Shown here: one piece after another, positions 2,701-53,729 of the stretch
How positions within the stretch are numbered: the stretch's first letter is position 1
Layout of the letters: each line of letters starts with the position of its first letter
NCBI GenBank assembly: GCA_964436235.1
Contig: CAYTCW010000008.1
Location: 2,006-55,734, forward strand
Reading direction: 5' to 3'
DNA from: an uncultured bacterium
GTDB taxonomy: Bacteria > Muiribacteriota > UBA9980
DNA: 53,729 bases
The notes under the pieces: generated by a model
Database searches by the model: none
Told to the model about the DNA's origin: nothing
What the model saw: only the letters and a program-made list of their open reading frames with translations
Translations under genes and position numbers: made by a program

Positions 2701-3564
2701 TCACCATCCTATTGCAATGTAAGATATGTTATCCTGGTTATTATTTGGATTATATAAATAACCGCCATTTAGGACAAAACTGCCACAAGCCGCAGGAGCG
2801 TAAGTCGGCGAACTCGCCTGTAATGTTGGTATCACTACCGCTATAGCGTTCGGAAAAGCGATCGGCCAATTTTCCCAAAGAGCCACACCCGCATTAACGC
2901 TCACTACGCCCCACTGTATAATTATTCCGTCAGCAAATTTTTTATATCCATTAAACGCGCCTTTTGAATTTGCTTCGCCGGTGTGCGACGTATGGATGGC
3001 CGATGCAAAATTAGACGGAGCATTGCCCTGTAAATAGCTCGCATTATTTGCGTTGGAGGCGTATGAAGCGTTTGGGACTACCCCGGTTAATGCTATTGTT
3101 AACGAGCGCATACCGGCATTTCCCACTATTGAAATATTAGCGCCTTCGATAAAAGTTATAAAATCCTGTTTGCTTAAAGCGTATATATTCGGGCCGCCAG
3201 GGCTTTTATAAATTGTGCCGAAAGCGTTCTGATTAACCTCCGCACCGAGCGCTATGCCGTCAAGTTTGATTTTATCCGTGTTAGACATAAAACCGTTATC
3301 AGACGATGACGCCGCGTTGTGAGAATGGACGGCCCCGGCGAATGCCGAGGCGTCGCTACCGTCAAGTTTATCCGCGTTTAAATTAGTGCAAAGCGTGCCG
3401 TTATTGATCGGTATATTATTACTGTTATTTCCCGGCGCGCGCCCCTTTAGCGTACCCGCATCAACGATCTGTCCAGTCCGCAAAGCCTCGGTGTTATCTC
3501 GTATCACGCCCGGACCGTCGGAGATATAATCATCATCCGCCGGCCGAGCTCCATCATAAGCCAT
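2701..3564 (-). CDS. Tail fibre protein
   Basis: N-terminus MAYDGARPADDDY..IRDNTEAL is shared with ORF 1309..2277. LNADKLDGSDASAFA fibre motif; C-terminal GIIIQWG-type knob motif. Confidence 0.7.
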   Translation of the reverse strand: MAYDGARPADDDYISDGPGVIRDNTEALRTGQIVDAGTLKGRAPGNNSNNIPINNGTLCTNLNADKLDGSDASAFAGAVHSHNAASSSDNGFMSNTDKIKLDGIALGAEVNQNAFGTIYKSPGGPNIYALSKQDFITFIEGANISIVGNAGMRSLTIALTGVVPNASYASNANNASYLQGNAPSNFASAIHTSHTGEANSKGAFNGYKKFADGIIIQWGVVSVNAGVALWENWPIAFPNAIAVVIPTLQASSPTYAPAACGSFVLNGGYLYNPNNNQDNISYIAIGW

Positions 3565-3584
3565 AAATTACCCCCTTGTTTAAA

Positions 3585-6500
3585 TTAATATCCGCGGGCA
3601 ATCCATAGGATCTGTCCGCCCACATCATTACCGCCTGAATCGAATACTTTTACCGTAAAATTGCTTAAATCTGGCTCACCGTTTAATTCGGCTCTGTTGC
3701 CGAGCGTAGTAGCCATGGCAACCACCGAAGGCACCGCGTAAAAAGTATAACCGTAATTAATTGTCGAACCGCCGACGGCAACCGTTTGATTTCCGTTTTT
3801 TATCATATCCGGTACGTCAACGTTAAGCTCGAATTGATTAACTTCCGGAGTTTTTCCGGGGCTGTCGGTAGCCAATTCCGCTTTAAATTGAATATATCGA
3901 AAAGTAGTTTGGAACGCCACGAACGGCAACCATTCCGGCCAGCCGTAACTTTCCGCCACTGGATCGTAATATGTACTGGTACGATAAAACAATCTTGCCG
4001 AAGTGCCGGCCGTAAATAAAACGCTCGTCGTAAAATTAGCGGTTATATTCGCGGTCAAAACTTTACCTACGTCCATTACGCCAGTCGTATAATCGCCTGA
4101 ATCATAATGCCATGTTGAATCCGAAAAACGTCGTGAAGGATAATCCGCAAAAGTTCCCGCAATATTCGAAAAATCACCGGTTACGCTATCAAGTTTCAAA
4201 ACATTCGAGCCGCCGATATCCGAAAACTTCGTGGTATCGTATTCGCTGAATTGCCCGCCGAGCGTCGAATATTTGAAAGCCGAAGCGCCGAAAACTGTAT
4301 CGTTATGCGTTCCCGTCGGATCATCGATCTCGTCATAAGTTAATATTACGTTACGCGGCAATAAGTTAGCGATCACCACGAATGCTTTAGCTTCCGCGTC
4401 AGAGTATTTTCCGGCGCGGTTAACGGCTTTTATCATAAAGTGTCGAAGCGTTTCTTTTTCGGCTAAAAACTGATAAGCCGGTAATGTTACGCCCGACACT
4501 ATGAGCGAGCCAGTATCCCACGTTATGCCCTCTCGTATTTCACAATGCGCGAAATCGACATCGGTGACTTTATTCCATGTCAGCAGGATATTTTCGCCGT
4601 TCTGGACGGCTTTAAATCCGGTTACGTTCGAAGGTTCGACCGTAGCCGAATAAAAATATGAAACTTCGTCGCTTTCAAAGAGCGCGGTATTTCTTGCCCT
4701 TATCATTAAATGATAAACTTCCGTGTCCGGTATAGCCCAGGTGACGCGCGTTTCTTTTGTTTTGATGATTAACGCCGAATCTTCCCAGCTTACGCCCCAG
4801 CGCAATTCGTACTCGAGTAAATCGAGATCAGCGATACCGGTCCATGTTATATTTGCCTTTGTTCTATCAGCGGGATCTGTAACGGCTGTTAAATTAGTCG
4901 GCGCGCTCGGATTCATCGAAAATAACGCGCTGAAAGAAGAAGCTGTTACGCTGTATTTTCCCGCTTTGCTTACCGCTTTAATCCACCATTTATAAGTCGA
5001 TTCAAGGCTTATTGTTACGTCGTAAAAAGTGCCGGCGACATTAGCCGAAACCAAGGTTCCGCCTGCCCATGTTTCACCCTGCCTGATTTCGTAATGGTCT
5101 GTATCGCGTTCAGGCGTGGCGTTCCAGGTAAGTCTTACCTTGCTTTTTGTGTCGCTAAACTGAGCGCCTTTGAAGCCGCTAATATTCGACGGTTCGATTG
5201 TAAAAGTGCCTGCCACATTTAAGGTTGACGAATAATAACCCGCCACGTTTTTGGCACGAATCATAAAATTATACGAGCCGCTTGCGCTTATAATATGAGT
5301 TATGCTCGCTTCTTTCACAATTCCGACGAGCGCTCCGGAGGTCCAATCCTGGCCGAGCCTCACTTCGTATCCGCTAACGTCGGCATCGGCCACGGCATCC
5401 CATGATATAACCAACCGCGTGCGATCGTTTAAATCCTGGGTTATTACGCCGTTAACCGGAGCGCTGCTCGAAAAATTAAACTGCCCGTCGGCGCCCGCTT
5501 CCGTAACCGAATATTTGCCGCCTATTGTTACGGCTTTTATCCAAAACCGATGAAATCCGCTCGTCGGTAGCGAGTAAACGAAAGATGTAGCCTTTGTATG
5601 CTGAATGACAGCGCTATCGAGCCACGAATCGCCGCGGCGCACTTCGTAATATGATAAATCCACTTCGGTTAATGCGTTCCATGAAAGAAGCACTTTCGTA
5701 CGATCGTAAGGGTCTGCGCTTGCCGTAAAGCCTGTTATATCTGAAGGCTCTACCGTTATACTTACGCTCGCCGTTGCCGGATTAGTTGAAAGATTGCCTG
5801 AAGTGTCCACCGAATATACCGTAAAATTATAAGTACGAGTCGCCGAAGCCTGAAAGTTAAATTTAGTGTCCGTGAGATAGTTCGAAACGCTTACGCCGTT
5901 TTCTTTTACCAGATAACCCCTTAAATCAACATTGGTTACGCCGGTCCATTCGAGCGTTATCTTTCGCTTATCGTTCGGGTCCTGCGTAATGGTTAAGCCG
6001 GTAACGTCGTTCGGCGGCAAGTCTTTTCCTGTTACATAACAGGGCGCGGACAAAACGCCGGGCGAAAGCGTACCTATTTCGTTGAGTGTGCATATTTTTA
6101 TAACGTATGTTTCAAGGGCCTTTACTCCCGATATTGTTATGGCCGTTTCGTTCGTTTCGCCCCATTTAAGCCAGTTAACGCCATTATCACGGCTATAAAA
6201 CACATGATAATTTTGTACTTGCCGGTTGCGCGGCGCCGTCCAGGACACATATAAAACCGAAACGATAGTTCCGTCTTTTTGCGCATAGGTTTCCTGTCCG
6301 ATTTGTATATTTGATACATCGATATAAGGCGTTAAGGCGCTGTAATTTATATCAGGAACGTCCGTCGCCTCATCGTAAACGGCCGCCACATATTCAAGAG
6401 CGGTTATACGCCGCGTCATATCGGTTGCACGCGTGATATTAGCTACTCTGAAAGGTTTGGCCTCGACATTAAGCTCGCCCAGCGTATAAACGTCATGCTT

Positions 6501-10444: not shown

Positions 10445-13400
10445 TTACCCCCTCGCTCCGGCCATAACCGTTCTCATGCCGCCGATGTTGCGCGTGTATG
10501 CGTCTAAAACAACACCGACGATATAACGCTGACCGTCAAACTTCGTTTCTTGCTTAACCTCGGCTTTAACGCCGAGATTGTTTTGTACATTGACTATTAC
10601 CGTGGGCGCTGAGTTTGATGCACTTTTAAGCGCATGATTCGGCACGATCGTACCGCTTGCGGACGGCACGAATAACTCCGGGCCGCGCTCGCCGACGATA
10701 TAAGGCCGGCCAGCATAAACAGGGCCGCCATCGGCTCTAAAACCGAAAAGACTTGTTATCGCGCTTAAAAATCCGCCGCCGGAACTGCTTTCTTGCCCGC
10801 CGCCGCCAAGAATGCTCGATATGATTTTTTGAGAAAATGCGTTTGCCAGAGCGCTTGAAATAGCTCTAACGATACCCTGCAAAAAGCTTTTAACATAATC
10901 GCCTAAGCTTTTTAATTGCCCGGTCATTGCGTCGAAGAAGAACTCCTGAAAAGAACTTTGCATTGACATTGCGGTTTGACGGCCTACTTCCTGCATATTA
11001 CGCGCCCAGGTGCCGAAAGAATCGGAAGTTTGTTTTAACCCCGACATAAAACCTTCGAGGCCGCTCAACGGCGTGTTTTGTATGCTTTTTTCCGTTTCGG
11101 CAAGCTGTTTTCTTAATTCGTAGCGTTCCGCAAAAGATTTTCGTTCATCGGCAAACTGCTCTTGCAAATATTTTTTCTTGTTTTCCAGTTCTTTTCTGTT
11201 CAGCCGGTCGATTTCTTCCTGTGTTTTAAGGTTTAGATCGAGTTCGAGCTGGTTATACTCAATACGCATGTTGTATTTTTCAATCTCAGCCTGGCGTTCT
11301 TTATCGTCGCGTTCTTTTTTAGCCTGGCTGATTTTAAGGCCGACTTCGTTTTCGACGGCGATTCGCGCCTGCATATCAGTAACCGGGTCGCCAGTTCCGA
11401 GCGCTTTAAGCCGCGCTTCTTTTTCTTTTTCGATACCGGCGACGGCGATCTGGAATTCGGCTTCGGCCTGAGCCTTTTTGTCATCGCGCATTTTCGCCAT
11501 GATTAAATTCGTATCGTTTCTCATGCCGGTCCAGGCATCACGCCAGGCGCGCTTGATAGGTTCCGTCATTATGTTCTGATATTCGCCGATCTTCGCTTCC
11601 AGCGCCGATGTGTCGAGGCCTTCCATTTTGCCTTTCCCGACAAGCTCGCGCTGCATTTTATCGATTTCATCATTTATTTTGGACATGCCGAGCTGATACG
11701 ACGATCCGGTTTCAGATATGATCTTCTGGTTCAAGTCATTAAAAGCGTCCTGGATGCGATTGGCGAGTTTGAAAGTTTTATTTTCTGCAGCGCTTCCACC
11801 ATTTTTTTCATTGGGATAAATAAGTGGAGATTTGATATTATTAAAAACTTTTTCACCTTTTTCATTATTTTTACCTGTTTCAGACATACTATCAAGAAAT
11901 TTCGAAAACGGCGAATTAGCAATTTGTGATTTTTCAATTTCAGTTTTTAATTGTGTTAGATGTCCGCTAACATATTGTTTTCCAAAATTATAGGCTGTTT
12001 TAATGACATTACTATCAGGAAGTTTCTGGAATTCATTTGCATAGTCTTTTTTGATATTTTCTTTTTTGCTTTCAGTTGGTCTGGGAATTTCAAGCGGAGT
12101 AAATTTTATTCCTATGTATTTGAACATATCTAATCTGCTAAAAGCATCTTGGATTGAATTTACCATTTCGTATATTTTTATTTTTATATGCTCTGTAGTT
12201 TTTTCAAAAACCGTATATATATTGGCGCCAAGGTCAATAAAAAAATTTTTAATTCCGTTGTATGCCCACAAACCGATATCATATATTTTTACAAAAGCTT
12301 CCGTTACCGAGTCTAAGCTGGCAAGGACAATATTAAACGCGCCAGCCAGAATATTACCATTTCCCCATGCTTGAAGCTCAATTTTAATTTTTTCAAAAAA
12401 AGGATAAATAAAGTTAAAAATACCGGCAATTTTTGTTTTAATTGATTCTGGGATCATGTTTTCAAAAGCTTTTTTAAATCCCGATTTTTCCATTATTTCT
12501 ACAAATTTATCCGACCAATTAACAACTTCATTGAGTATTGATTTTAATCCTGAAAATACAGTTTCACCGGTTTTACCGATAATTTGAGAAAAATTATCTT
12601 TAATGTTGCTCATGATGCCATAAAAAGTTTTAGATTGTTTAGCCATCATATCTTTATATCTTGCGCCAAAACCGTCAATTAAAGCGTCAATAACTTTATT
12701 TATTTCCATGCCTGAATCTTGAACTTGTTTAATGGACATTTTAAATTTATCTCGAAATATTTCCTCGATTGGAAGCCCAAGATTGGTAAGAGGCCGTGTG
12801 TCCTCTATTACAACTTTTCCAGCACCCCGCATCTGCCCAAGCTGCGTTACAATAGTTTTTAGCTCTGGCGCTCCTTTTCCTATGCCTGCTGTTGCATCGC
12901 CGATTTTTCTAAGGTCCGGCAATATTTTTTGAGCACTCCAGCCAAAAGCAAGCATAATTCGAGATGTTTCTTCAAGGTCTTCATATTCAAAAGGTGTTAT
13001 ACGTGCCTCGGTTTTTAATTTTCGTATAAAATAATCAGCAGCTTCCGCTGATTTAAAAAAATTAGTAAAACTTATTTTCGATTGTTCCATACGTGCATTA
13101 AAACCAATCAAGGCATTACCTAAAGAATCAAAAGATGTCGATAGTCCGGCGATAGCCAGCTGAGCAGTGCCAAAAGCCAAAGCTTGTTTGACTACACTGG
13201 AAAATGCACCTGCTAAACCTTTAGCGGATGCCTTAACTTTGTCGAATGCCGAAGATAATGTTTTCTGAAAATTAAGGCCTTTTTTTGCGGTATTATCCAA
13301 CGATTGATTTAAGGAGTTTAGGCCGGATATTTGAATTTGCTTGTTTTTTTCAGCCAATGCCATTTGGGATTTATACCATTCGTTGACTTTCATCGTAACG

Positions 13401-13921
13401 CGCGGATCATTATCATCAAGAGACAATGCTTTTATCTTGGCGTCGCGCTCTCGCGCAAGCGCTGTAACGACAATTTTATATTCAGCTTCTGCCAGAGCTT
13501 TTTTATCACCTAATATTTTGGCATTAGTGAGCGCGGTTTGATTGACTAAATCTTCATTAGCCTCTTTCATGGCTTGACGCGCTGGTTCAAGCATCAGGCG
13601 TGAATATTCGTTGAGCGAAGGCATTACTTTTGAAACATCGATATTTGCGTCTTTGGCTAAAGAAATAAGCAAATTTTTAGTTTTTGAAATTTCTGAATTT
13701 AAGTCTTTAAACTTATTTTCAAAGCCTCCAGACGACATTTTTCCTATCGATTTATTTAAGCCTTCAAAAGCATTTTTAAAATCATTAGTAGCTGCCACTG
13801 ATTCAGACATTGTTTTTAAAGCTGAACCGCCTACATCTTTCAAAGTAGATGAGACCTTTTTAAGAGATGAAGAAGCGTCATCGACTGCTTTGATTACAAT
13901 TTCTATATTTTGATTTGCCAT
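10445..13921 (-). CDS. Tail tape measure protein
   Basis: 1158 aa, highly alpha-helical/coiled-coil, downstream of the G/GT chaperones. C-terminal GGPVYAGRPYIVGERGPELFVP motif. Confidence 0.9.
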   Translation of the reverse strand: MANQNIEIVIKAVDDASSSLKKVSSTLKDVGGSALKTMSESVAATNDFKNAFEGLNKSIGKMSSGGFENKFKDLNSEISKTKNLLISLAKDANIDVSKVMPSLNEYSRLMLEPARQAMKEANEDLVNQTALTNAKILGDKKALAEAEYKIVVTALARERDAKIKALSLDDNDPRVTMKVNEWYKSQMALAEKNKQIQISGLNSLNQSLDNTAKKGLNFQKTLSSAFDKVKASAKGLAGAFSSVVKQALAFGTAQLAIAGLSTSFDSLGNALIGFNARMEQSKISFTNFFKSAEAADYFIRKLKTEARITPFEYEDLEETSRIMLAFGWSAQKILPDLRKIGDATAGIGKGAPELKTIVTQLGQMRGAGKVVIEDTRPLTNLGLPIEEIFRDKFKMSIKQVQDSGMEINKVIDALIDGFGARYKDMMAKQSKTFYGIMSNIKDNFSQIIGKTGETVFSGLKSILNEVVNWSDKFVEIMEKSGFKKAFENMIPESIKTKIAGIFNFIYPFFEKIKIELQAWGNGNILAGAFNIVLASLDSVTEAFVKIYDIGLWAYNGIKNFFIDLGANIYTVFEKTTEHIKIKIYEMVNSIQDAFSRLDMFKYIGIKFTPLEIPRPTESKKENIKKDYANEFQKLPDSNVIKTAYNFGKQYVSGHLTQLKTEIEKSQIANSPFSKFLDSMSETGKNNEKGEKVFNNIKSPLIYPNEKNGGSAAENKTFKLANRIQDAFNDLNQKIISETGSSYQLGMSKINDEIDKMQRELVGKGKMEGLDTSALEAKIGEYQNIMTEPIKRAWRDAWTGMRNDTNLIMAKMRDDKKAQAEAEFQIAVAGIEKEKEARLKALGTGDPVTDMQARIAVENEVGLKISQAKKERDDKERQAEIEKYNMRIEYNQLELDLNLKTQEEIDRLNRKELENKKKYLQEQFADERKSFAERYELRKQLAETEKSIQNTPLSGLEGFMSGLKQTSDSFGTWARNMQEVGRQTAMSMQSSFQEFFFDAMTGQLKSLGDYVKSFLQGIVRAISSALANAFSQKIISSILGGGGQESSSGGGFLSAITSLFGFRADGGPVYAGRPYIVGERGPELFVPSASGTIVPNHALKSASNSAPTVIVNVQNNLGVKAEVKQETKFDGQRYIVGVVLDAYTRNIGGMRTVMAGARG

Positions 13922-14272
13922 TTAAACACCTTCTCTCTTTTGGGAATTTGAAATTACCGCCCATTCGACGGCCTGAAGTACCTTTAATTTTTCGTGATCT
14001 ATCTGTATTTCAAGAATTTCGGCGATCTTAAAAACTGCGTTATAATCCAGACCGATTGTGTCGCCCATAGCGCTTATTTTCCATTGTGTAGCCGAAGCGC
14101 GGAGCAATTCATAAACTTCAAAATTGCCTTTATCCAGAACCGGCGGATTATGTTCGCACCCTTCGCATGGCGTTTTTCGTTTTGTCCGGATGAAATGGGG
14201 ACGGCACATTTTCGAGCAATATTCGGCTCTTTTGGCGTCCGTCTCCATTATCCAGACCTTGGTTAGTTTTTT
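13922..14272 (-). CDS. T-extension of tail assembly chaperone GT, reached by a -1 frameshift from ORF 14263..14577
   Basis: This ORF is in the -1 frame relative to G and overlaps its 3' end. It has no convincing start of its own. The slippery heptamer sits directly before the G stop. Confidence 0.7.
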   Translation of the reverse strand, partial: KKLTKVWIMETDAKRAEYCSKMCRPHFIRTKRKTPCEGCEHNPPVLDKGNFEVYELLRASATQWKISAMGDTIGLDYNAVFKIAEILEIQIDHEKLKVLQAVEWAVISNSQKREGV

Positions 14273-14593: not shown

Positions 14594-14625
14594 TAAAAAA
14601 TAAGGCCCGAATCGCTCCGGGCCTT
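14594..14625 (-). terminator. Intrinsic terminator or attenuator downstream of the tail tube gene and the mini-array
   Basis: 8-bp GC-rich stem aaggcccg/cgggcctt (14602-14625), followed on the minus strand by ATTTTTT. Confidence 0.6.
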
Positions 14626-14658
14626 TAGTTAACGTTCTTTTTTTTGCTATACTTACTT

Positions 14659-14756
14659 AGACCTGATTAAAAGGGATTAAAACGCTTCGAATATTTCGGC
14701 CTGGAACGTGTTCACGCGGTCATTCGAAAAAGACCTGATTTAAAAGGGATTAAAAC
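14659..14756. CRISPR. Mini-CRISPR array: repeat (14659-14683), 47-nt spacer (14684-14730), repeat (14731-14756)
   Basis: Repeat 1 is AGACCTGATTAAAAGGGATTAAAAC and repeat 2 is AGACCTGATTTAAAAGGGATTAAAAC (1-nt indel). A third copy lies at 43105. The first 39 nt of the spacer match the phage's own tail gene at 15150-15188 in 32/39 positions, and 6 of the 7 mismatches are at codon third positions. Confidence 0.75.
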
Positions 14757-16078
14757 TAAAACGAAGCTACGTCGTTAACGAGCGTTACAATAGCCGCGCT
14801 CGCGCCCGCGTCATCACCGAAATAAGCCCTGTAATTCAGGTCAACCATGACACCGGCTGGACCGCTTATCGCCGGGCTCGAGCAGTCGAATAAAACTTCG
14901 TTGAATTTGAAACTTAACGATTTATTCGCGCCCGATGTAAACTTCAATTCAATCGACGTTTCCGTCGCGTTTGCGCCCTTATCGATTAATGAAGTGTCGG
15001 TGAATAAGGTTTTAAGCGTACCGCCAAAAGTGAAAACGCCTTCGGGGATGTCGCCGCGCTCGCCGCCGCCCCCGATGACGTACTGGTTGCCGTCTAAATT
15101 CGAGCCGAAGTTGATTTCGCCCGAACTTATAATGCCGCTCGATACGCCGGCTTCAAATATTTCAGCCTGAAAAGCGTTTACACGGTCAATAACGACCTCA
15201 ACGGCGCTGGAGTCGTATTCGGAATCGCTTATCGCTTCTTTCGCACCGATAATGTCCATGCTTGCCACGAGTTCGCCTTCATCGCCGAAAGGTAGTTTAA
15301 ACGAACCGATTTTGCACCCGTTGTAAAGGAAATATTTGTCGATATCGGTGAAGCCTTTTTCCAATACTAACGACGGCTGGGCGTCAGTTACTTTGAAAAC
15401 GTGCGAGTATTTATCAACGCCTGCCGTGGCCGTAGCCGCCGCCGCGTGGCACTTCATAAACGACGCGCCGGATATATCCGTGCCCGATGAAGCAGCCGAC
15501 AAAGCCGACACGCTCGATGCCGCGCCGGTAGTACCTGATGTTATTTTAAAATTTGTAGTTCCGGCTTGCCAGGCAACCGTCGCGAGCGTAAAACCGCCGC
15601 TTCCGACGGCTCTGATTTTAGCCTGTATCGCCGCCGCAACGCCCGCCATGTCGGACGCGCCCGAAAGGTCTATACTTGTTATACTCTGTTCGGAGCCGTT
15701 AATCGTAACTTTAAACGAGCCGTCGCTTATCGCTGTCCACGTCCCGAGCGTGTCGGTTACGCCCGTTGCACCCGTTAAATAACCGGCTATTCTCTGGTCG
15801 GTAGTGTCAGGCGCGCCGAAAATGGCCTTCATCCAGTAACCGATTGAACGGTAACACAACGGTACCGTTAACGCGCCGTCAACTGCGGTTCTGCCTATTG
15901 CCGGCTGGATAGGATTGCGGCCGCCGCGAATCGTAGCCGGATCGATAAGATTTCTTGTCTTTTTTAATTCGAACGTATTGAAAGGCATTATTTTGCCAGC
16001 CTTCGGGCTCGGATTAGCTTTAAAAGTAGTTTCGTAATCCATCACCAGAGCTGATAATGCACCCTTTGCCTGTGGCAT
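14756..16078 (-). CDS. Major tail (tube) protein, probably with an inserted or decorating domain
   Basis: 440 aa, sitting directly upstream of the G/GT chaperones. Followed by a terminator. Strong SD. Confidence 0.65.
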   Translation of the reverse strand: MPQAKGALSALVMDYETTFKANPSPKAGKIMPFNTFELKKTRNLIDPATIRGGRNPIQPAIGRTAVDGALTVPLCYRSIGYWMKAIFGAPDTTDQRIAGYLTGATGVTDTLGTWTAISDGSFKVTINGSEQSITSIDLSGASDMAGVAAAIQAKIRAVGSGGFTLATVAWQAGTTNFKITSGTTGAASSVSALSAASSGTDISGASFMKCHAAAATATAGVDKYSHVFKVTDAQPSLVLEKGFTDIDKYFLYNGCKIGSFKLPFGDEGELVASMDIIGAKEAISDSEYDSSAVEVVIDRVNAFQAEIFEAGVSSGIISSGEINFGSNLDGNQYVIGGGGERGDIPEGVFTFGGTLKTLFTDTSLIDKGANATETSIELKFTSGANKSLSFKFNEVLFDCSSPAISGPAGVMVDLNYRAYFGDDAGASAAIVTLVNDVASF

Positions 16079-20698: not shown

Positions 20699-21100
20699 TT
20701 ACTTTATAAATTTAATTAATTCTGGATTATCGCGTATTACCTGAAGCATACCTTTCGCGATCTCGTTAACTAATTTTTCCATCTGATCGTTATCCTGTGG
20801 CAATAAATCTTTTATGTCGCGCTCCTGAGCGATAGCGTGAACGATCTCGTGCATAAGCGTTACTTTCTGGTTTGGAAGCGAAACATCGGCGTTTGCAATT
20901 TCAATCTCTGATGTAACGTAATCGATCGCGCCGAACACCAACCGGCCGTTAAGGAATACCTTTTCTTTCGATATGATTTTATAATCTACGTTATCAACTT
21001 TTACGCTCCCGGGCATAATAGAAAGGAACCCTGAAAGCGCTTCTTTCATTTGTTCCTGGTTAACTGTTTTTTCGTAAAATTCGGGTTTTTGAAATTTCAT
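20699..21100 (-). CDS. Small HExxH (putative zinc metallopeptidase-like) protein
   Basis: 133 aa with the motif VTLMHEIVHAI. A partial paralogue lies at the right window edge (53547..53729). Confidence 0.5.
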   Translation of the reverse strand: MKFQKPEFYEKTVNQEQMKEALSGFLSIMPGSVKVDNVDYKIISKEKVFLNGRLVFGAIDYVTSEIEIANADVSLPNQKVTLMHEIVHAIAQERDIKDLLPQDNDQMEKLVNEIAKGMLQVIRDNPELIKFIK

Positions 21101-25611: not shown

Positions 25612-25688
25612 TGAGCGCGTACTGGATTCGCACCAGTGCTGAAACCGTGTGGGTTATACGGCCCGCCTTGCTAACTCGGCCAACGCGC
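25612..25688 (-). tRNA. tRNA-like element with a non-canonical anticodon arm and T-loop (possible pseudo-tRNA)
   Basis: Minus-strand fold: acceptor GGCGCGT/ACGCGCT, TG, D-arm GCC-GAGTTAGCAA-GGC, T-arm ACTGG-TGCGAAT-CCAGT. The anticodon stem GCCGT/ACGGT closes a 9-nt loop ATAACCCAC. T-loop position 55 is G. Confidence 0.35.
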
Positions 25689-25691
25689 CCG

Positions 25692-40799: not shown

Positions 40800-41036
40800 A
40801 TGAGTAAAAAAGGGTTAAAACAATATTCTTTTTGTCTGGAATGCGGACAAAGCTATTATCTGGTTGATTATGACGCTAAATTTTGCGGTTCTTGCGGTAA
40901 ATCACTTTCTACTCATTGCCCGAATCAAAAATGTGGCCGTGAAATTATTGTACCTGACAAGCATTGTGTTTATTGTGGCTATAGAATGATTAAAGATACA
41001 GCAAAATGTACGACGTTTAGAGCCGATTTCGTTTAA
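40800..41036 (+). CDS. Double zinc-ribbon protein
   Basis: ATG at 40800 with SD AAAGGTGA. Motifs CLEC..FCGSCG..CPNQKCG..CVYCG. Paralogous layout to ORF 41708..41941. Confidence 0.6.
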   Translation: MSKKGLKQYSFCLECGQSYYLVDYDAKFCGSCGKSLSTHCPNQKCGREIIVPDKHCVYCGYRMIKDTAKCTTFRADFV

Positions 41037-41594: not shown

Positions 41595-41674
41595 GGCGAA
41601 CGGCCGGATTCGAACCAGCATGTCGTCGGAGTGGTATTCCTTCGTGTTGGCTCTACCGATTGAGCTACGTTCGC
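41595..41674 (-). tRNA. tRNA-like gene with canonical acceptor, D and T arms but an aberrant, over-long anticodon region
   Basis: Minus-strand fold: GCGAACG-TA-GCTC-AATCGGTA-GAGC...GCTGG-TTCGAAT-CCGGC-CGTTCGC-C. There are 30 nt between the D and T arms. The best loop is GGA-ATACCAC-TCC. No CCA is encoded. Confidence 0.5.
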
Positions 41675-42334: not shown

Positions 42335-42610
42335 ATGCGCAAAATCATTGAAATAATTGAGATTTTGAGAGAAAACAAATCTTTAAAATCTGAAACACAA
42401 GTTGCAAAAATATTGGGCATGACTCAGCAGGCGTTAGCGCATCATAAGTTAAGAGGTTCTTATCCTTATGAGCAATTAGCCGCTTTCTGCGAGCGGGAGG
42501 GCGTTTCGCTGGACTGGCTCCTACTCGGCCGCGAGCCAGAGAAGCCCGCCGCCGAATCCGACCTCGAGCGCCGGATCACGGAGCTTGAAAAAATAATTAA
42601 AAAGAAGTAG
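42335..42610 (+). CDS. CI-like HTH regulator, paralogue 2
   Basis: MRKIIEIIEILRENKSLKSETQVAKILGMTQQALAHHKLRGSYPYEQLAAFCEREGVSLDWLLLGR, followed by a C-terminal helical tail. Confidence 0.65.
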   Translation: MRKIIEIIEILRENKSLKSETQVAKILGMTQQALAHHKLRGSYPYEQLAAFCEREGVSLDWLLLGREPEKPAAESDLERRITELEKIIKKK

Positions 42611-42633
42611 AATAATAATAAAGAGGCTTAATA

Positions 42634-42831
42634 ATGCCGAGAAAAATTAGAGAGTTAATAACCGATCTGGAACGGGCCGGTTTCGTAAACCACGGCGGGA
42701 AAGGCAGCCACCGTAAATTTGTTTATCAAAAAACAAAAACGATTGTAATTATTTCAGGAAATAACGGTGACGATGCTAAAATATATCAAGAGAAAAAAGT
42801 TAAAGAGGCTATTGAGGAGGCAACTAAATGA
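42634..42831 (+). CDS. hicA: HicA toxin
   Basis: MPRKIRELITDLERAGFVNHGGKGSHRKF.. Confidence 0.85.
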   Translation: MPRKIRELITDLERAGFVNHGGKGSHRKFVYQKTKTIVIISGNNGDDAKIYQEKKVKEAIEEATK

Positions 42832-43067
42832 AATTGTGCGACAAATATATTAAAATAGTCGAATGGTCCGACGAAGACAACTGTTATATAGGCACATGCC
42901 CTGAGCTGTTTTACGGCGGCTGTCACGGCGACGATCCTAAAGCTGTTTTCGCCGAGCTGTGCGAAATTATCGAAGAAGTCGCTGAAATTTATGAAAAAAA
43001 CGGCAATCTGCTTCCAAAGCCCATGACCAGCGATAACATAATTAATATTCTGAAAAAGGCCGCCTGA
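42828..43067 (+). CDS. hicB: HicB antitoxin (N-terminal domain type)
   Basis: ..IVEWSDEDNCYIGTCPELFYGGCHGDDPKAVFAEL..LPKP. There is a 4-nt overlap with hicA. Confidence 0.75.
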   Translation: MKLCDKYIKIVEWSDEDNCYIGTCPELFYGGCHGDDPKAVFAELCEIIEEVAEIYEKNGNLLPKPMTSDNIINILKKAA

Positions 43068-43104
43068 GAAGTATTGCACAATGGCCTCGCGTAATTTATA
43101 ACAT

Positions 43105-43130
43105 AGACCTGATTTAAAAGGGATTAAGAC
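43105..43130. CRISPR. Solitary CRISPR repeat unit (third copy of the 14.7-kb repeat)
   Basis: AGACCTGATTTAAAAGGGATTAAGAC matches repeat 2 of the mini-array in 25/26 positions. It is intergenic, between hicB and CI-like paralogue 3. Confidence 0.65.
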
Positions 43131-43280
43131 ATATTAAGTTGTCAACGAAACGCAACGGCTGTGCTATGGCTAAAGCGTGTTAAGTAGTTTAACGGGTTGT
43201 TAAGTTGTTAATTTTATTGTAACAAATTTTCGTCTATAAGTCAAGACAAAAAGTTGTTATTTTTAAAAATATTTTTATTT

Positions 43281-43553
43281 ATGCGTAAAATAGTTGAAAT
43301 CATTGAGATAATAAGACAACATAAAAATTTAAAAAGCGAAGCGCAAGTCGCGGCGGCTATTAACATGAGCCAGCAAGCGTTAAACAAGCATAAAATTCGC
43401 GGTAGCTATCCCTATGACCAGTTAATAGCCTTTTGCGAAGACGAAAGTTTATCATTCGATTGGCTCGTAATTGGCCGTGAACCGGCCGATAAAGAAAAAG
43501 AGATCGACGAGCTGCGGAAGCTTTTAAAGTCGGTCGAGAAAAAATTGAAATAG
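43281..43553 (+). CDS. CI-like HTH regulator, paralogue 3
   Basis: ATG at 43281: MRKIVEIIEIIRQHKNLKSEAQVAAAINMSQQALNKHKIRGSYPYDQLIAFCEDESLSFDWLVIGR.. Confidence 0.65.
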   Translation: MRKIVEIIEIIRQHKNLKSEAQVAAAINMSQQALNKHKIRGSYPYDQLIAFCEDESLSFDWLVIGREPADKEKEIDELRKLLKSVEKKLK

Positions 43554-46919: not shown

Positions 46920-47771
46920 ATGCCCAGAACTCCCAGCCCTTTACGATATCCGGGCGGCAAAACAGTTTACGCATCGATGATATCAGAAATAATCCAGGAA
47001 AATAATTTATCGGGCTGTTCCTATGCAGAGCCTTTTGCGGGTGGGGCCGGCGCTGCCATTACGCTATTGTTAAACAATCAAGTCAAAGATATTTGGTTAA
47101 ATGATTTCGACTATTCCATTTATGCTTTTTGGTATTCGATTTTAAAAAGAACAGATGAATTTATTCAAAAAATTATTTTTACCCCTATTACAATCAGTGA
47201 ATGGAAAAAGCAAAAAGCAATATATACCAATAAAAGCGTTAAAAAAGATATACTTTCAATTGGCTTTGCAACTTTTTATCTTAACCGATGCAATCGAGCC
47301 GGAATTTTATTGGCCAACCCCATTGGTGGCATTAACCAAACCGGTAAAGATCAAATTGACGCCAGATTTAAAAAAGAAGTATTAATTTCTAAAATCAAAA
47401 AAATTGCACAGCAAAAAAGTCGGATACATTTATTTAATCTCGACGCGATTGATTTTATTGACGTTATTAAAAAAGAAACATCAAAAATCATGGTCTATTT
47501 TGACCCTCCTTATTATAAAAAGGGAGAATTATTATATTTAAATTTTTATCGTCACAACGATCATAAAAAACTTTCAAAAAAAATCATTAATTCTAAATTA
47601 ACGTGGTTACTTTCTTATGATGACCATCCCGAAATAGTTGATCTGTATAACAAATTTCCGGTTTACAAAAGAAGATTACATTACTCAGTGTCTAATTCAT
47701 CTTGGGCTCAAGAATTAATAATTAGCAACCTAAATATTCCCAAAAATTTAAGAGGTCAAAATGCCAGTTAA
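46920..47771 (+). CDS. Dam-family (D12 class) N6-adenine DNA methyltransferase
   Basis: SPLRYPGGK, EPFAGGAG, NRCNRAG, and YFDPPYY (DPPY catalytic motif). Confidence 0.85.
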   Translation: MPRTPSPLRYPGGKTVYASMISEIIQENNLSGCSYAEPFAGGAGAAITLLLNNQVKDIWLNDFDYSIYAFWYSILKRTDEFIQKIIFTPITISEWKKQKAIYTNKSVKKDILSIGFATFYLNRCNRAGILLANPIGGINQTGKDQIDARFKKEVLISKIKKIAQQKSRIHLFNLDAIDFIDVIKKETSKIMVYFDPPYYKKGELLYLNFYRHNDHKKLSKKIINSKLTWLLSYDDHPEIVDLYNKFPVYKRRLHYSVSNSSWAQELIISNLNIPKNLRGQNAS

Positions 47772-49482
47772 CGAAGGAATAAAAGTTACAAAAATTAAAA
47801 TTGATAAATTTCGCAGATTCGAAAATATTGAATTTGAAATAGGCAAAAATATCACTCTAATTTCAGGTCAAAATGGTACTTCAAAATCTACATTATTGGG
47901 CATGCTCGCTCAACCTTTTTCGTTTGGAGTAATTCAAGGCGAAAAAGCACGCAAACCCGACAATTCAAAATATACAAGTAATTATCACGGTATTAATTTG
48001 GCCGAAAAAATTGATTTAGCGGAAAAACCTTTTGCATATGATTGTGAAGATGTTTTTCGCTTATCGACTACTCACGATTCGATTCAAAAAAACTATGTTT
48101 ACAAACTATACTTATCAGGTAATTGTATCGAACCCGACATTATAAAAAATGGACTTTTAATCCGGACTCAAGCGCGACCCAAAAAACGCAATGAAAAAGT
48201 TGCACGTATTCGATTTGTAACCAGTCCTGGTTCAAAATCAAGTAGCGGAGCCGGAGAAGGCAATTTCCCGCATCCTGTAATTTATTTTGGGTTAAATCGT
48301 CATTGGCCAATGGCGCTTTTAAAAAAAGTTACAGTGGAGCTTCATCAAGGAATGGACAAACAAGATGAAGAATGGTTTACTGAAAAATATAAAGATATTT
48401 TACTCCTAAATCAAGAGCAACATCGGCTTGAACAAATAAAAACCGATTTTGGAGCAAAAAAAAATTTGCTTAGTGCTGCCGGTTGCGATTATGATGGTGA
48501 AAGTTTATCTGCTGGGCAAGATAACCTTGGTCAAATTTTAGCCGCCGTTCTTTCTTTCAAGCGCCTTAAGAAAGATTTGGGACAAAAATATCAAGGTGGG
48601 CTAATTTTAATTGACGAAATCGATTCGACGTTACATGCTTGGGCCCAAATTCGTTTATTTGAATTATTATCCGAAGTTTCTAAAGAGTATCAATTGCAAA
48701 TTGTCGCTACAACACACTCGATGTTTTTGCTTAAACATGCTTTTCAGTCAAGTTTAAGAAAAGATGTGAAAGTAATATATTTAAAAAGAGAAGATAACGG
48801 CATTGTTGATAGTGGTTTTAGTTCGTTTGAAGAAATAGAAAATAACTTAACGGTTCAGTTCAAACCCAAAATCCCCAAAACCGTTTCAAAGATTTCATAT
48901 ATTTTTGAAGATAACATAACAAAAGAAATGTTTTTTGGAATTATCGGCAATTCGCTTAACAAATATTTTAAACTTCATACGTTAAAATCTATAAGTGCCT
49001 GTACGTTAGCGAGTATTGCATACCTTAAAGTACCAGAGTTCAAAAATGTTTTAATGGTTGTCGATGGAGATGTAAGATCTAAAATGCCTAAAAACATTGA
49101 AAATTTAATTATCTTGCCTGGAAATCATAGACCAGAAACGCTATTATATCTTTGTCTTAGAGACTTAAAAGATTCAGATCAATTTTGGAAGAATTCTAAT
49201 TTTACCGGCTATTCAAAACAAGCTGTTATTGGCACATATCAATCACAGCTTGATAAGGCGGATTTAGATTCTGATGTGGATAAACCCAAATTTAAAGCTT
49301 GGTATGATAAACATAGAAAATGTTGGGGAATTAAAAGTAACATCGCTTTTCAAAAATGGGCCGAAATCAATAAAAACGAATGTAAACAATTTTGTAAATC
49401 GTTTTTTGAAATTCTCAATAAAATATTACATGGTCGCATTTCAAAAGCCGAATACGATAAAATTTTTAAAAAATATTCATAA
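47761..49482 (+). CDS. ABC-type (OLD/AAA_15-21-like) ATPase with a C-terminal Toprim-like region
   Basis: Walker A GQNGTSKST, signature LSAGQ, Walker B LILIDEIDSTLH, H-loop VATTHS. The C-terminus has IFEDN ... VVDGDVR ... LPGNHRPE. The start overlaps the methylase stop by 11 nt. Confidence 0.7.
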   Translation: MPVNEGIKVTKIKIDKFRRFENIEFEIGKNITLISGQNGTSKSTLLGMLAQPFSFGVIQGEKARKPDNSKYTSNYHGINLAEKIDLAEKPFAYDCEDVFRLSTTHDSIQKNYVYKLYLSGNCIEPDIIKNGLLIRTQARPKKRNEKVARIRFVTSPGSKSSSGAGEGNFPHPVIYFGLNRHWPMALLKKVTVELHQGMDKQDEEWFTEKYKDILLLNQEQHRLEQIKTDFGAKKNLLSAAGCDYDGESLSAGQDNLGQILAAVLSFKRLKKDLGQKYQGGLILIDEIDSTLHAWAQIRLFELLSEVSKEYQLQIVATTHSMFLLKHAFQSSLRKDVKVIYLKREDNGIVDSGFSSFEEIENNLTVQFKPKIPKTVSKISYIFEDNITKEMFFGIIGNSLNKYFKLHTLKSISACTLASIAYLKVPEFKNVLMVVDGDVRSKMPKNIENLIILPGNHRPETLLYLCLRDLKDSDQFWKNSNFTGYSKQAVIGTYQSQLDKADLDSDVDKPKFKAWYDKHRKCWGIKSNIAFQKWAEINKNECKQFCKSFFEILNKILHGRISKAEYDKIFKKYS

Positions 49483-49514
49483 AAATGGGTTTCCCCTTCT
49501 CAGCGTGGCTTTTT

Positions 49515-50332
49515 TTATTTACTCACCCTCCCCGCAGTAATCTCGCAGTATTCCGGACTCAACTCCGCGGCGAGCCACGGCCGACCGAGATACTCGGCAA
49601 CCTCTGCGACAGTCCCAGAGCCGCAGAAGGCGTCGAATACAATCGACTCCGGCCCGGAATACCCCTTGATTATGGTCTCGATGAGCCCGACCGGCTTCTG
49701 CGTCGGGTGAGCCGTGCGCTCCGCCCGCGGCATCGAAGACTTGTTCGGAAAGTAAAGACCGACACCGGCCAGCGCGTTCCTTTGTTCTCAGTGGCTATTT
49801 TGTTTTTCGGCGTGCAATGCTGTTGTGCCTGGTACTGAGTAAGCTTCGCCTGGCTCGCGCCGGACTTAACCTTCACATGATACGGCGCGCCGGCCGTCAT
49901 GATGTCCTTGCGGTTAAACGGCAGAAGGCTCACGCGCTTGAGTTCCTGCTTATGGAAGGCGTATATTATTTCGTGCTTCGAAGCCGGCTTAACGGCGCCG
50001 AACGCCGGGACGAAATTCGGCTTAACCCATATATATTCGAACTTCCTTTTAAACCCTGCTCTTAATGCCTCGTGCGCCATCTCGACCGTGCCGACCAGGA
50101 AGAACCAGCCGTTATCTTTTAATATGCGTTTAAACTCGACGAAGATCGCTCGGAAGTCAAGATCTGTCTTATCGAAGTCGAGGTTAGTGGTCAGCCAGGG
50201 TGGATCTGTCACGATCAGGCTGATCGTCTTATCTGGGATTGCCTTCATGAGCTCTATGCAGTCGGCGTTATAGAGCTCGCCGAGCTGGGTTTTAAAATAC
50301 GGGGTAAATTTTGAACGTACACTTTCGAACAT
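49515..50332 (-). pseudogene. Beta-class N4/N6 DNA methyltransferase interrupted by a frameshift
   Basis: ORF 49670..50332 carries LIVTDPPW (motif IV). A second frame, open from ~49780, reads ..ALAGVGLYFPNKSSMPRAERTAHPTQKPVGL..VFDAFCGSGT (motif I). The frame change lies near 49760-49790. Confidence 0.75.
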
Positions 50333-53360: not shown

Positions 53361-53384
53361 CGGGTTCAAGTCCCGCTCTCCGCA
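53361..53384 (+). other. att core: 3' end of a class-II (Leu-like) tRNA, comprising T-arm, acceptor strand and discriminator
   Basis: CGGG-TTCAAGT-CCCG-C-TCTCCGC-A. No matching 5' half (GCGGAGA..) occurs within ~150 nt upstream. It lies 150 nt from the int start and is followed by a terminator. Confidence 0.55.
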
Positions 53385-53390
53385 TAATAT

Positions 53391-53546: not shown

Positions 53547-53729
53547 TTATAGAACTAAATTATAATATCCGCGAAAACTTTGTTTAATTTCCGGCCCAGG
53601 CCGCGTTTTCCAGATTATATCGCGTTCCTGAGTGATAGCGTGAACGATCTCGTGCATAAGCGTTACTTTCTGGTTTGGAAGCGAAACATCGGCGTTTGCA
53701 ATTTCAATCTCTGATGTAACGTAATCGAT
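53547..53729 (-). CDS. Partial paralogue of the HExxH protein 20699..21100 (C-terminal part; gene runs off the right edge)
   Basis: Minus-strand translation is ..IDYVTSEIEIANADVSLPNQKVTLMHEIVHAITQERDIIWKTRPGPEIKQSFRGYYNLVL*. The stretch 53634-53729 is identical to 20831-20926. Confidence 0.6.
   Translation of the reverse strand: MDYVTSEIEIANADVSLPNQKVTLMHEIVHAITQERDIIWKTRPGPEIKQSFRGYYNLVL

Follow-up and report, generated by a model that had tools for sequence, protein, structure and literature searches.

What is the short repeat-spacer-repeat element that lies behind the tail-tube gene of a temperate phage, and against which genome would its spacer be directed? The element is found in the stretch of DNA analysed in this study (53,729 nt, hereafter the window), which represents a temperate siphophage with integrase, RecT/YqaJ, TerL, capsid, tube and tape-measure genes. 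A sequence-only reading had proposed a phage-borne mini-CRISPR array dependent on host Cas proteins, with two options for strand and type. Typical targets of viral mini-arrays are neighbouring genes in closely related viruses, the carrier copy being mutated (PMC6858448, PMC11656645, PMC7099407); virus-borne mini-arrays were reported by Faure et al. 2019, as cited in PMC11656645, and those of SPV1/SPV2 by Medvedeva et al. 2019 (PMC6858448). From the sequence comparisons described below, we consider it probable that the locus is a virus-borne mini-CRISPR array with type III, Cas6-processed repeats in a cas-less temperate siphophage, used against a related phage.

The phage itself offers no Cas machinery. 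A Pfam scan of the 66 window ORFs, with its full list of families, yielded no Cas domain, and tblastn with 15 host Cas proteins against the window gave nothing below E = 0.03, in agreement with the earlier statement that cas genes are missing from the window. The tail-tube gene shows synteny with tape-measure and chaperone genes. An exact-protein look-up of the tube protein returned no record, and its 90% protein cluster contains only the window protein and that of a sister phage, L188, from run SRR27710297. Named homologues of the integrase (34-45% identical) are from Desulfobacterota, and its relatives in P0104 (L189, L190) are located on phage contigs without host flanks.

Table 1 Positions of the mini-array, its surroundings and related elements in the window
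Feature	Position	Strand	Description
Intrinsic terminator of the tail-tube transcript	14602-14625	-	Stem of 10 bp (6 GC pairs) with a T-run behind it
Extended -10-like element	14645-14653	+	TGCTATACT; putative promoter of the crRNA strand, start at about the first base of R1
R1	14659-14683	+	25-nt repeat, 5′-truncated; profile E = 5e-5
Spacer	14684-14722	+	39 nt, antisense to the tail-tube mRNA
R2	14723-14756	+	About 34 nt: degenerate 5′ part TTCGAAAA plus conserved 26-nt core
Tail-tube stop codon	14756-14758	-	TAG; last base common to R2
Tail-tube gene	14756-16078	-	440 aa; Phage_tube_2 with DUF3383-type insertion (PF18906, PF11863); 3′ UTR holds the array
Own diverged protospacer copy	15150-15188	-	Inside the tail-tube gene; 32/39 to the spacer
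hicA/hicB toxin-antitoxin pair	42634-43067	+	ORFs; HicA_toxin match; directly upstream of R3
R3	43094-43130	+	Full-length 37-nt solitary repeat with tag ATTAAGAC; core 43105-43130, ends AAGAC

The two near-identical direct repeats of 25 and 26 nt described before were present (Table 1), the core of R2 (14731-14756) having one T more than R1. Of the 47-nt unique segment that had been placed between them, the first 39 nt form the true spacer. The last 8 nt (TTCGAAAA) look like the 5′ part of R2, because the profile envelope of R2 spans 14723-14756 (E = 1e-6), a sub-threshold Rfam CRISPR-DR8 match (28.8 bits) covers the same interval, and TTCGAAAA shows 6/9 identity with the 5′ part of a 35-nt host repeat family. 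The homology of the spacer to the tube gene begins exactly at the R1/spacer border and stops at nt 39, and this length lies within the 35-45-nt spacer range of the same related host repeat family.

As proposed, the array is enclosed by the tube stop codon, which overlaps R2 by one base, and the intrinsic terminator, and the late mRNA therefore carries the array in antisense. The terminator sequence is identical in L188, and in the more distant relative L106 a terminator is located directly 3′ of the tube gene. A leader is missing from the mini-array. The extended -10 motif claimed upstream of R1 was present in the sequence; it was not called as a promoter by a simple consensus promoter scan because a -35 box is missing. 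The same motif is kept in L188 upstream of the single repeat found there; TGCTATACT is listed here as a putative promoter of the crRNA strand.

For the search of the whole window, a repeat profile HMM was built from 43 distinct host repeat sequences. It matched exactly R1, R2 and R3, the next best match having an E-value of at least 1.1. Weaker repeat-like sites at 40807 and 51456 were rejected as chance matches, CCTGATT being absent upstream. The third copy reported about 28 kb away, at 43105, turned out to be part of a full-length repeat. R3 has the same orientation as hicB and starts 27 nt downstream of its stop codon; hicB was assigned by its position and its overlap with hicA, and hicAB is probably the transcription unit that carries R3. 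A spacer-like guide composed of R3 and the following 40 nt was also considered and rejected, as these 40 nt match nothing else in the window. Both R3 and the single repeat of L188 are stand-alone viral copies resembling host repeats, as is characteristic of solitary repeats.

Are these repeats genuine CRISPR repeats? In the search for arrays with this repeat and typing of their cas genes, suggested earlier, the repeat core was found at 103 genome loci and 76 metagenome loci, and many of these loci hold arrays in which the repeat recurs about every 70 nt. The phage repeats match the conserved 3′ 25 nt of 35-37-nt repeats that occur in hundreds of such arrays. Of the repeat, R1 retains no more than the part that host repeats have in common, namely a short CCU/AGG hairpin, which was seen in the repeat fold, followed by the 8-nt tag ATTAAAAC; in host repeats, a CCCU/AGGG hairpin is followed by the 8-nt end ATTAAGAC. 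The tag ATTAAAAC is shared by R1 and R2, and R3 has ATTAAGAC like nearly all host repeats. The resemblance to cellular repeats is seen at the family level, with 24/25 identical positions between R1 and the 3′ part of an L052 repeat variant, 32/37 between R3 and an L052 repeat in a nearly full-length alignment, and profile E-values from 5e-5 to 8.5e-10 (R3).

Host arrays adjoin cas1-cas2, cas6, cas10/csm or cmr genes and genes of CARF effectors (csm6, card1, csx1). Examples are L034 with cmr2-cmr3 and RAMP genes, L023 with csx1, cas6, NE0113, cas1 and cas2 near the array, and L191 with a complete cas6-cas10/csm1-csm2-RAMP-cas1-cas2-array-card1-csm6 locus. Given these neighbours, the phage repeats are, as judged from the sequences, genuine CRISPR repeats of type III and not of type II-C. 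The host arrays follow cas1-cas2 on the same strand in the orientation ending ATTAAGAC and have a degenerate terminal repeat at their distal end. By this direction, the plus strand of the window is the crRNA strand and the crRNA would be antisense to the tail-tube mRNA. Thereby, the plus-strand option of the sequence-only reading, with a Cas6 handle, type III assignment and a crRNA complementary to its target mRNA, was borne out.

Rfam gave nothing at threshold on genuine host arrays, and thus does not cover the family. In IMG/VR, the repeat had only two chance matches inside coding sequence and no other virus carrying it. Single-copy matches in the Desulfobacterota loci L014, L027 and L102 were rejected as a conserved intergenic element and are not arrays. 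For the Cas1 of the 35-nt repeat family, the nearest relatives are in Desulfovibrionaceae, and its locus, the best-characterised related one, has a GC content of 61% vs 43% in the phage.

The origin of the spacer was analysed by comparison with the tube genes of the window and of L188. The reported match to the own gene was reproduced: spacer nt 1-39 are identical to the own copy at 32 positions (next best window site, 23; best of 300 query shuffles, 26), and the spacer positions that differ are 6, 15, 21, 24, 26, 30 and 33. The exchanges are G/A (four times), C/A, T/C and C/T, and six of these seven affect codon position 3 (wobble). The own copy lies within the most diverged patch of the tube gene vs L188. 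A diversity-generating retroelement was rejected as the source of this copy, as no reverse-transcriptase domain was found in the window, the mismatches are not adenine-specific and the copy is flanked by CRISPR repeats.

The spacer encodes DRVNTFQAEIFE vs DRVNAFQAEIFE in the own gene. The tube gene of L188 has 94% DNA identity to that of the window, the proteins being 98% identical, and the L188 protein carries DRVNTFQAEIFEA, exactly the peptide of the spacer. The L188 protospacer matches the spacer at 35/39 positions with nt 1-23 exact, and its mismatches at spacer positions 24, 27, 33 and 39 are all wobble and all synonymous. The presence of the sister's amino-acid variant in the spacer speaks for a foreign origin, and at the sequence level these comparisons support the earlier suggestion that a related phage's orthologous tail-tube gene was the source of the spacer. 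For the protospacer expected in such an orthologue, L188 gave the best match recorded; an exact 39/39 protospacer was not found, and a codon-degenerate pattern had no match in IMG/VR and JGI metagenomes. The distant relatives L106, L107, L108 and L110 (tube protein 56% identical) contain neither repeat nor protospacer. When about 1,400 unique spacers of retrieved host arrays were compared with the window, L188 and two relatives, no match (14-18 nt) rose above the chance level. Complementarity of the target flank to the tag is 1/8 in L188 and 2/8 in the own gene.

The window phage and L188 are collinear with 93-94% identity. At the array site, L188 has a single repeat identical to R1, and the difference between both phages is one clean 73-nt spacer-plus-repeat unit, the flanks of which are identical except for one mismatch on each side. 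In this, the locus behaves as an array does, by gain or loss of a whole unit. Because R2 has a host-like 5′ part and R1 is without it, the unit more likely came from a host array, by recombination via the conserved 25-nt core of the repeat.

Transcription, processing, loading and interference of the array would proceed as follows. In the lysogen, the plus strand would be transcribed from the promoter-like element just upstream of R1, and host Cas6 would cut within R1 and R2, 8 nt before their 3′ ends. The resulting crRNA, consisting of the tag ATTAAAAC and the 39-nt spacer, would be loaded into a host Csm or Cmr complex. During infection by a closely related heteroimmune phage, the crRNA would pair with the tube mRNA made by this phage; the target flank being unpaired with the tag, Cas10 would be activated, and effectors of the Csm6, Card1 or Csx1 kind would block the infection via cyclic oligoadenylate, i.e. 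superinfection exclusion. Self-targeting would be lowered by the seven of 39 positions at which the own tube gene differs. Type III complexes tolerate mismatches, and every-sixth guide positions are unpaired in them. Since three of the seven own-gene mismatches fall on such positions, self-targeting of the carrier may still occur.

Several observations count against this main reading. Some Cas6 enzymes require the 5′ third of the repeat, and this part is absent from R1. The tag ATTAAAAC of R1 and R2 is unlike the near-universal host ATTAAGAC, the promoter is an extended -10 only, uncalled by the scan, and the GC content of the best-characterised related locus differs from that of the phage. 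Also, the 39/39 protospacer was not found and the host spacers were without a phage match.

As to how a spacer nearly matching an own gene could be kept, one tentative and rather unlikely proposal is that the antisense position of the array acts as a safety switch, the single repeat of L188 being an empty landing pad. The own late mRNA would carry the perfect complement of the crRNA including the anti-tag, and during lytic growth this 'self' RNA would bind or sponge crRNA-loaded type III complexes without activation of Cas10. Convergent transcription would also stop crRNA synthesis.

Among other explanations, a role of the repeats at both loci as RNA anti-CRISPR decoys survives best, although we consider it unlikely. 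The repeats would mimic host repeats and bind Cas6 and Csm/Cmr subunits, thereby lowering type III immunity against the phage, and the spacer would be a passenger acquired when a solitary repeat recombined with a host array. This would fit L188, which has only a solitary repeat at the array site behind the same promoter-like element, as well as the second solitary repeat R3 in the window and the retention in the phage copies of just the repeat module conserved across host lineages. According to PMC10651486, solitary repeats directly behind promoters inhibit CRISPR types I-F, I-E, I-C and V-A; the validated cases given there include no type III repeat decoy. Moreover, a passenger spacer is not expected to encode the exact peptide of the sister phage and yet to differ from the carrier gene, a pattern that could in turn be given by selection against self-matching passengers. 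Decoy and exclusion functions are compatible with each other.

The unit could also be a neutral scar, i.e. a host-array unit that entered by recombination, is neither expressed nor used and will disappear again through deletion between the repeats, an event that may already have taken place in L188. Of the two recorded genomes of this phage, one is without the unit, and the missing leader, the weak promoter, the truncated R1 and the non-canonical tag would agree with this reading. We nevertheless regard it as quite improbable: neither the repeat core nor the tag nor the spacer/repeat borders are disrupted, the promoter-like element is at the right distance and kept in both phages, a second full-length repeat is kept 28 kb away in the same phage, and the pattern is that of validated viral mini-arrays (PMC6858448).

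Self-regulation, in which the crRNA pairs imperfectly (32/39) with the own tube mRNA and late expression is thereby tuned or gated through host type III complexes, is very improbable. The first 14 nt of the spacer do pair with the own gene except at position 6, which is unpaired in type III complexes, and partial-match crRNA-like regulators occur in other CRISPR types (bioRxiv 10.1101/2023.03.03.530964, 10.1101/2024.10.29.618823). However, the spacer fits the sister phage better than the own gene and contains the sister's amino-acid variant, pointing to a foreign origin; Cas10 activation on the own late mRNA would harm the phage, and L188 manages without the spacer. A minus-strand crRNA with a truncated type II-C repeat pairing with a tracrRNA, the other option of the sequence-only reading, has to be abandoned with near certainty, as it was favoured only by a resemblance of GTTTTAATCCCTTTTAAAT to the Campylobacter jejuni repeat, whereas every examined cas-flanked array with this repeat runs the opposite way beside cas6, cas10, csm/cmr and CARF genes without any cas9, and neither an anti-repeat nor an inverted copy of the repeat was found in the window.

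With superinfection exclusion as the preferred function, the locus can be compared to known systems. Viral mini-arrays are recognised by one or two spacers in a viral genome without cas genes, and the window contains one spacer and no cas genes. As in the mini-arrays of PMC6858448 and PMC11656645, the carrier is a non-lytic or temperate virus, host-type repeats enclose the intergenic spacer, the latter matches an array-near gene of a close relative while the carrier copy is point-mutated, and sister viruses differ in array content. The window array is thus a further example of the known viral mini-arrays and solitary repeats, as had been proposed. It differs from them in that its repeats are from bacterial type III-A/III-B loci, its first repeat is a 25-nt core directly behind a -10 element with no leader, and the array is antisense in the 3′ UTR of the gene whose orthologue would be targeted; its best recorded target matches at 35/39 and not at 100%.

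R3 and the L188 repeat resemble the Racrs of Camara-Wilpert et al. 2023 (PMC10651486) as stand-alone copies in prophage intergenic regions, the L188 repeat being directly behind a promoter-like element. The validated Racrs of that source are of types I-F, I-E, I-C and V-A, whereas the repeats of the window and L188 are type III; also unlike Racrs, one solitary-repeat site recurs as a one-spacer array in a sister phage, linking both classes. Chromosomal III-A (Csm) and III-B (Cmr) arrays (L034, L052, L191 and others) share the 3′ 25 nt with hairpin and tag, the spacer length range and the strand logic with the phage copies. In the phage, in contrast, there is one spacer only, cas genes are not adjacent, the tag of R1/R2 is a variant (AAAAC), and the 5′ third is missing from the repeat or degenerate. 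Cracr units (bioRxiv 10.1101/2024.10.29.618823) are likewise phage-encoded repeat-spacer units and load into host Cas proteins; they target host cas or toxin promoters by partial matches, whereas the window spacer matches a phage structural gene.

Reports of mini-arrays and solitary repeats in viruses go back to 2019, and few natural cases show their origin or involve type III. The window and L188 present, at the sequence level, a case of viruses borrowing host CRISPR against related viruses with type III repeats. As a pair differing by one unit, with a spacer aimed at the sister's allele, they provide a natural experiment for CRISPR-based interphage exclusion, and could show whether solitary repeats serve as spacer landing pads. 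If they do, arrays would arise by recombination with host arrays, and the solitary-repeat and mini-array classes would be linked. If a 25-nt core behind a promoter suffices, a minimal Cas6/effector substrate would be defined for a widespread repeat family. With a mismatch-tolerant type III system and only 7/39 differences, the locus raises the question of how the virus avoids self-targeting; if the safety switch is true, the prophage could keep a spacer nearly matching its own gene.

When one genome per prokaryotic species was scanned, a core motif of the window's repeats, GATT(N)AAAAGGGATTAARAC, turned up at 103 loci, many of them carrying 4 to 67 copies with a ~70-nt period; a metagenome scan contributed 76 further loci. 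Array-bearing taxa included Thiothrix, Competibacteraceae, Rhodoferax, Halothiobacillus, Thiorhodospira, Methylothermaceae and other MAGs. The full-length host repeat comprises 36-37 nt (for example GTTTGAAACGTAGACCTGATTAAAAAGGGATTAAGAC in the chromosomal array of locus L052). Comparison of the host arrays revealed a lineage-variable stretch of the initial 12 nt and a nearly invariant stretch of the final 25 nt, part of which was preset by the search pattern, while its GCCCT stretch was left free in the genome scan. The phage repeated unit corresponds only to this conserved 3' module: R1, the first repeat of the window array, matches one L052 repeat variant at 24/25 positions, and the solitary copy R3 with its upstream bases (43094-43130) matches the L052 repeat at 32/37.

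Pfam analysis of the array neighbours identified cas1, cas2, cas6, Csx1-type CARF, NE0113, Card1, SAVED and a B116-like protein. At locus L034, cas10/cmr2-cmr3-RAMPs directly adjoin the array. A second, related repeat family has 35-nt repeats (GTGGAAATAGACCTGATTCTCAAAGGGATTAAGAC) and spacers of 35-45 nt; its locus L191 is a complete III-A system with the order cas6, NE0113, cas10/csm1, csm2, RAMPs, array, cas1, cas2, cas2, array, card1, csm6. Judged from repeat sequence and these neighbours, the phage repeats are real CRISPR repeats of type III; their identity as CRISPR repeats, proposed in the sequence-only reading, is thereby borne out by arrays beside cas genes. Sub-threshold matches of Rfam CRISPR-DR8 on the phage were regarded as mere resemblance, because Rfam gave nothing above threshold on these host arrays either. 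Two metagenome contigs of the 35-nt family (L153, L124) showed an unusually heterogeneous array structure, gaps of 0.5-2 kb breaking up the arrays and the loop varying in many of the repeats (CTC, CAT, CGT, TGA, TGC). Three Desulfobacterota MAGs share a conserved single-copy intergenic element, AATTATAYRGAGGGAAGATTAAAAAGGGATTAARACGARATTAAAATCC (L014 ~3550-3569, L027 ~4273-4292, L102 ~3307-3326), which includes the repeat 3' half and lies outside any array.

Features of the mini-array locus and related elements in the window
Feature	Position	Strand	Remarks
Intrinsic terminator	14625-14602	-	downstream of tube gene
Extended -10 element, putative promoter	14645-14653	+	TGCTATACT, upstream of R1
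R1	14659-14683	+	AGACCTGATTAAAAGGGATTAAAAC; 25 nt, 5'-truncated
Segment between R1 and R2 core			47 nt; first 39 nt = spacer homologous to tube gene
Spacer as re-read	14684-14722	+	39 nt
R2 as re-read	14723-14756	+	about 34 nt
R2 core	14731-14756	+	AGACCTGATTTAAAAGGGATTAAAAC; final base within TAG stop of tube gene
Tail-tube gene	14756-16078	-	440 aa; stop TAG
R3 core (third copy)	43105-43130	+	ends AAGAC
Integrase	52052-53209		

In the window, two near-identical 25/26-nt repeats, a third copy, the terminator and the stop codon abutting R2 were all located where they had initially been described. A profile HMM built from 43 distinct host repeats matched exactly three sites, R3 (E = 8.5e-10), R2 (1e-6, envelope 14723-14756) and R1 (5e-5), while the best site beyond these had E >= 1.1. 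Of the 47-nt spacer proposed at first, the first 39 nt stand, and the terminal 8 nt (TTCGAAAA) are read, with modest confidence, as the 5' part of R2. The gene homology stops before TTCGAAAA, its translation would disrupt a conserved VVI motif, and it lengthens both the profile and the covariance-model matches of R2. It also agrees with the 5' part of the 35-nt host repeat family at 6/9 positions, ungapped, a match with random odds of ~5-10%, several consensus sequences being possible. Because TTCGAAAA leaves the gene homology and resembles the repeat 5' part, the array is described as R1 (25 nt), spacer (39 nt) and R2 (~34 nt). A 7-nt inverted repeat, TTCGAAT/ATTCGAA (14686-14692 and 14722-14728), which includes the palindrome TTCGAA, brackets the spacer. 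In the predicted fold of the array transcript its arms make up the principal stem; this inverted repeat may have arisen by chance or may reflect how the unit was acquired.

The homology of the spacer to the window's own tube gene starts at the first base past R1 and comprises 32/39 identities with 15150-15188, compared to 23 for the runner-up site across the whole window and a top score of 26 among 300 shuffled queries. The third-position bias reported earlier was reproduced, with six of the seven mismatches at codon position 3 (peptides DRVNTFQAEIFE for the spacer and DRVNAFQAEIFE for the gene). The 440-aa gene is a tail-tube gene, having Phage_tube_2 with a DUF3383-type insertion in Pfam and a distant likeness to annotated tube proteins, and being followed by chaperone and tape-measure genes.

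The closest tube homologue in a first protein search was just 56% identical, and the phages with this protein had neither repeat nor protospacer, their terminator following directly after the tube gene. The 90% cluster of the window's tube protein contained one other member, P0099 (98% identical), which has DRVNTFQAEIFEA, exactly the peptide of the spacer. Its contig L188 (Logan SRR27710297), a sister phage, aligns collinearly with the window (93-94% DNA identity), the tape-measure gene being the exception. This sole strongly diverged block (window 10955-13947, 1,158 aa; L188 12023-14366, 926 aa) is of low GC in the window (0.35 in the 12001-14000 bin), and this suggests a module swap. The L188 protospacer and the spacer share 35/39 positions: 1-23 are identical, and the mismatches fall at the wobble positions 24, 27, 33 and 39. 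This supports the predicted origin of the spacer from the tube orthologue of a related phage; an exact (39/39) protospacer was not found in IMG/VR, the JGI metagenomes or the 90% protein cluster. Among the three alleles the pattern is mosaic, with L188 agreeing with the spacer but not the window at five bases, the window with the spacer but not L188 at two, and two bases being unique to the spacer; therefore, the donor was a third, unsampled allele nearer to L188. The tube genes of window and L188 differ at 75 of 1,323 nt, and the protospacer sits in their most diverged patch, with seven of these differences (top 8.4% of 39-nt windows), which is suggestive, though no proof, of selection on the site.

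Where the window has its array, L188 shows the same terminator, TGCTATACT element and downstream sequence, with only one repeat, identical to R1, so that the window carries a clean 73-nt insertion of one spacer-plus-repeat unit; gain and loss both fit this comparison of two genomes. We infer that an assembly collapse is unlikely, because common assembly k-mers exceed the repeats in length and an indel distinguishes the repeats. An extra T and a 5' part resembling that of host repeats are present in R2 and missing from R1, a pattern that duplication of a resident repeat by Cas1-Cas2 would not explain well. Recombination with a host array via the 25-nt core would fit R2 better, and has likewise been proposed for leaderless phage mini-arrays (PMC6858448).

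At all host loci examined, the array comes after cas2 and shares its strand; the repeats end in ATTAAGAC, and a degenerate terminal repeat closes the distal end. Thus, the plus strand of the window is taken as the crRNA strand. The 8-nt tags are ATTAAAAC in R1 and R2 and ATTAAGAC in R3, preceded by a 3-4-bp CCU/AGG hairpin. Of the two orientations initially considered, the plus-strand option with a Cas6 handle and type III targeting is favoured by the cas2 direction and the cas10/cmr neighbours, while the minus-strand type II-C option fell away, no cas9 being seen at any cas-flanked array locus examined. Transcription from TGCTATACT, which a promoter scan left uncalled because it has no -35 box, would begin near the first base of R1, and the plus-strand crRNA would be antisense to the tube mRNA. 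Type III targeting needs such a crRNA antisense to the target mRNA.

Best supported is the interpretation familiar from other viral mini-arrays, crRNA-guided use of host type III systems against close relatives: the prophage would express a crRNA from the mini-array, and the host type III machinery would take it up and act on closely related phages upon transcription of their tube gene. The protospacer flank is complementary to the tag at 1/8 positions in L188 and 2/8 in the own gene, so a paired target would count as non-self. Type III systems leave each sixth guide position unpaired, tolerate several mismatches and trim mature guides at the 3' end. By these general rules, L188 would be left with one to three effective mismatches, each at a distal position, and the own gene with three or four (at 15, 21, 26 and 33), which favours targeting of the sister phage, self-targeting still being conceivable. 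The carrier's late mRNA crosses the array in antisense and therefore contains a perfect site with anti-tag; speculatively, this could be a safety device. Rival to targeting of relatives, the repeats might serve as a Racr-like RNA decoy, for which the solitary repeat copies speak; the array might be a neutral recombination scar, or regulate the phage's own late genes.

The carrier is a temperate siphophage with, besides the integrase, CI-type repressors, RecT/YqaJ, TerL, capsid, tube, tape-measure and distal tail genes. The absence of cas genes was upheld by Pfam on 66 ORFs (complete list of 25 families, Cas domains absent) and by tblastn of 15 host Cas proteins against the window (no match). 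Named integrase homologues were distant and from Desulfobacterota; Cas1 of the 35-nt repeat family was nearest to Desulfovibrionaceae, with a locus GC of 61% versus 43% in the phage. No match to the phage was found among ~1,400 host spacers, and in IMG/VR this repeat occurred in no other virus.

Several further observations concern the prophage. The final 115 nt of the window (53615-53729), just past the integrase and a tRNA-3'-end-like sequence (GGGTTCAAGTCCCGCTCTCCGCA, ~53365-53390), repeat 20812-20926, a stretch inside a head-module gene (20699-21100), at 97.4% identity and with the orientation kept. Either a fragment of a second, adjacent related prophage or an assembly join could account for this; the former, if real, would place related phages on a single host chromosome. 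Two paralogous CI-type repressor genes (42335-42610, 43281-43553) with similar operator-like GTTAAGTTGTTAA motifs upstream flank a hicA/hicB pair and R3 (42335-43553), as if a duplicated immunity region had received a cassette insertion. A D12 adenine methyltransferase (46920-47771), an AAA_15/AAA_21 ATPase (47761-49482) matching PADLOC PtuA, GajA and AbiLi-type models, and a small ORF may form a prophage-borne defence cassette (46920-49838). The tRNA tools disagreed, ARAGORN calling only a tRNA-Gly (anticodon acc; 25612-25690, minus strand) and Rfam only a tRNA at 41595-41674 (minus strand).

Virus-borne mini-arrays and solitary repeats are a published class (PMC6858448, PMC7099407, PMC11656645, PMC10651486). 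By its sequence features the window array matches this class, in agreement with its initial placement: like the published mini-arrays, it has repeats of a family known from cellular CRISPR arrays and a temperate carrier that encodes no cas genes, its spacer nearly matches the neighbouring gene in a close relative, and the carrier has a mutated copy of that gene. What sets this array apart is that its repeats are of type III, its first repeat is minimal, it lies antisense within a late 3' UTR, and the same locus occurs with a single repeat in a sister phage.
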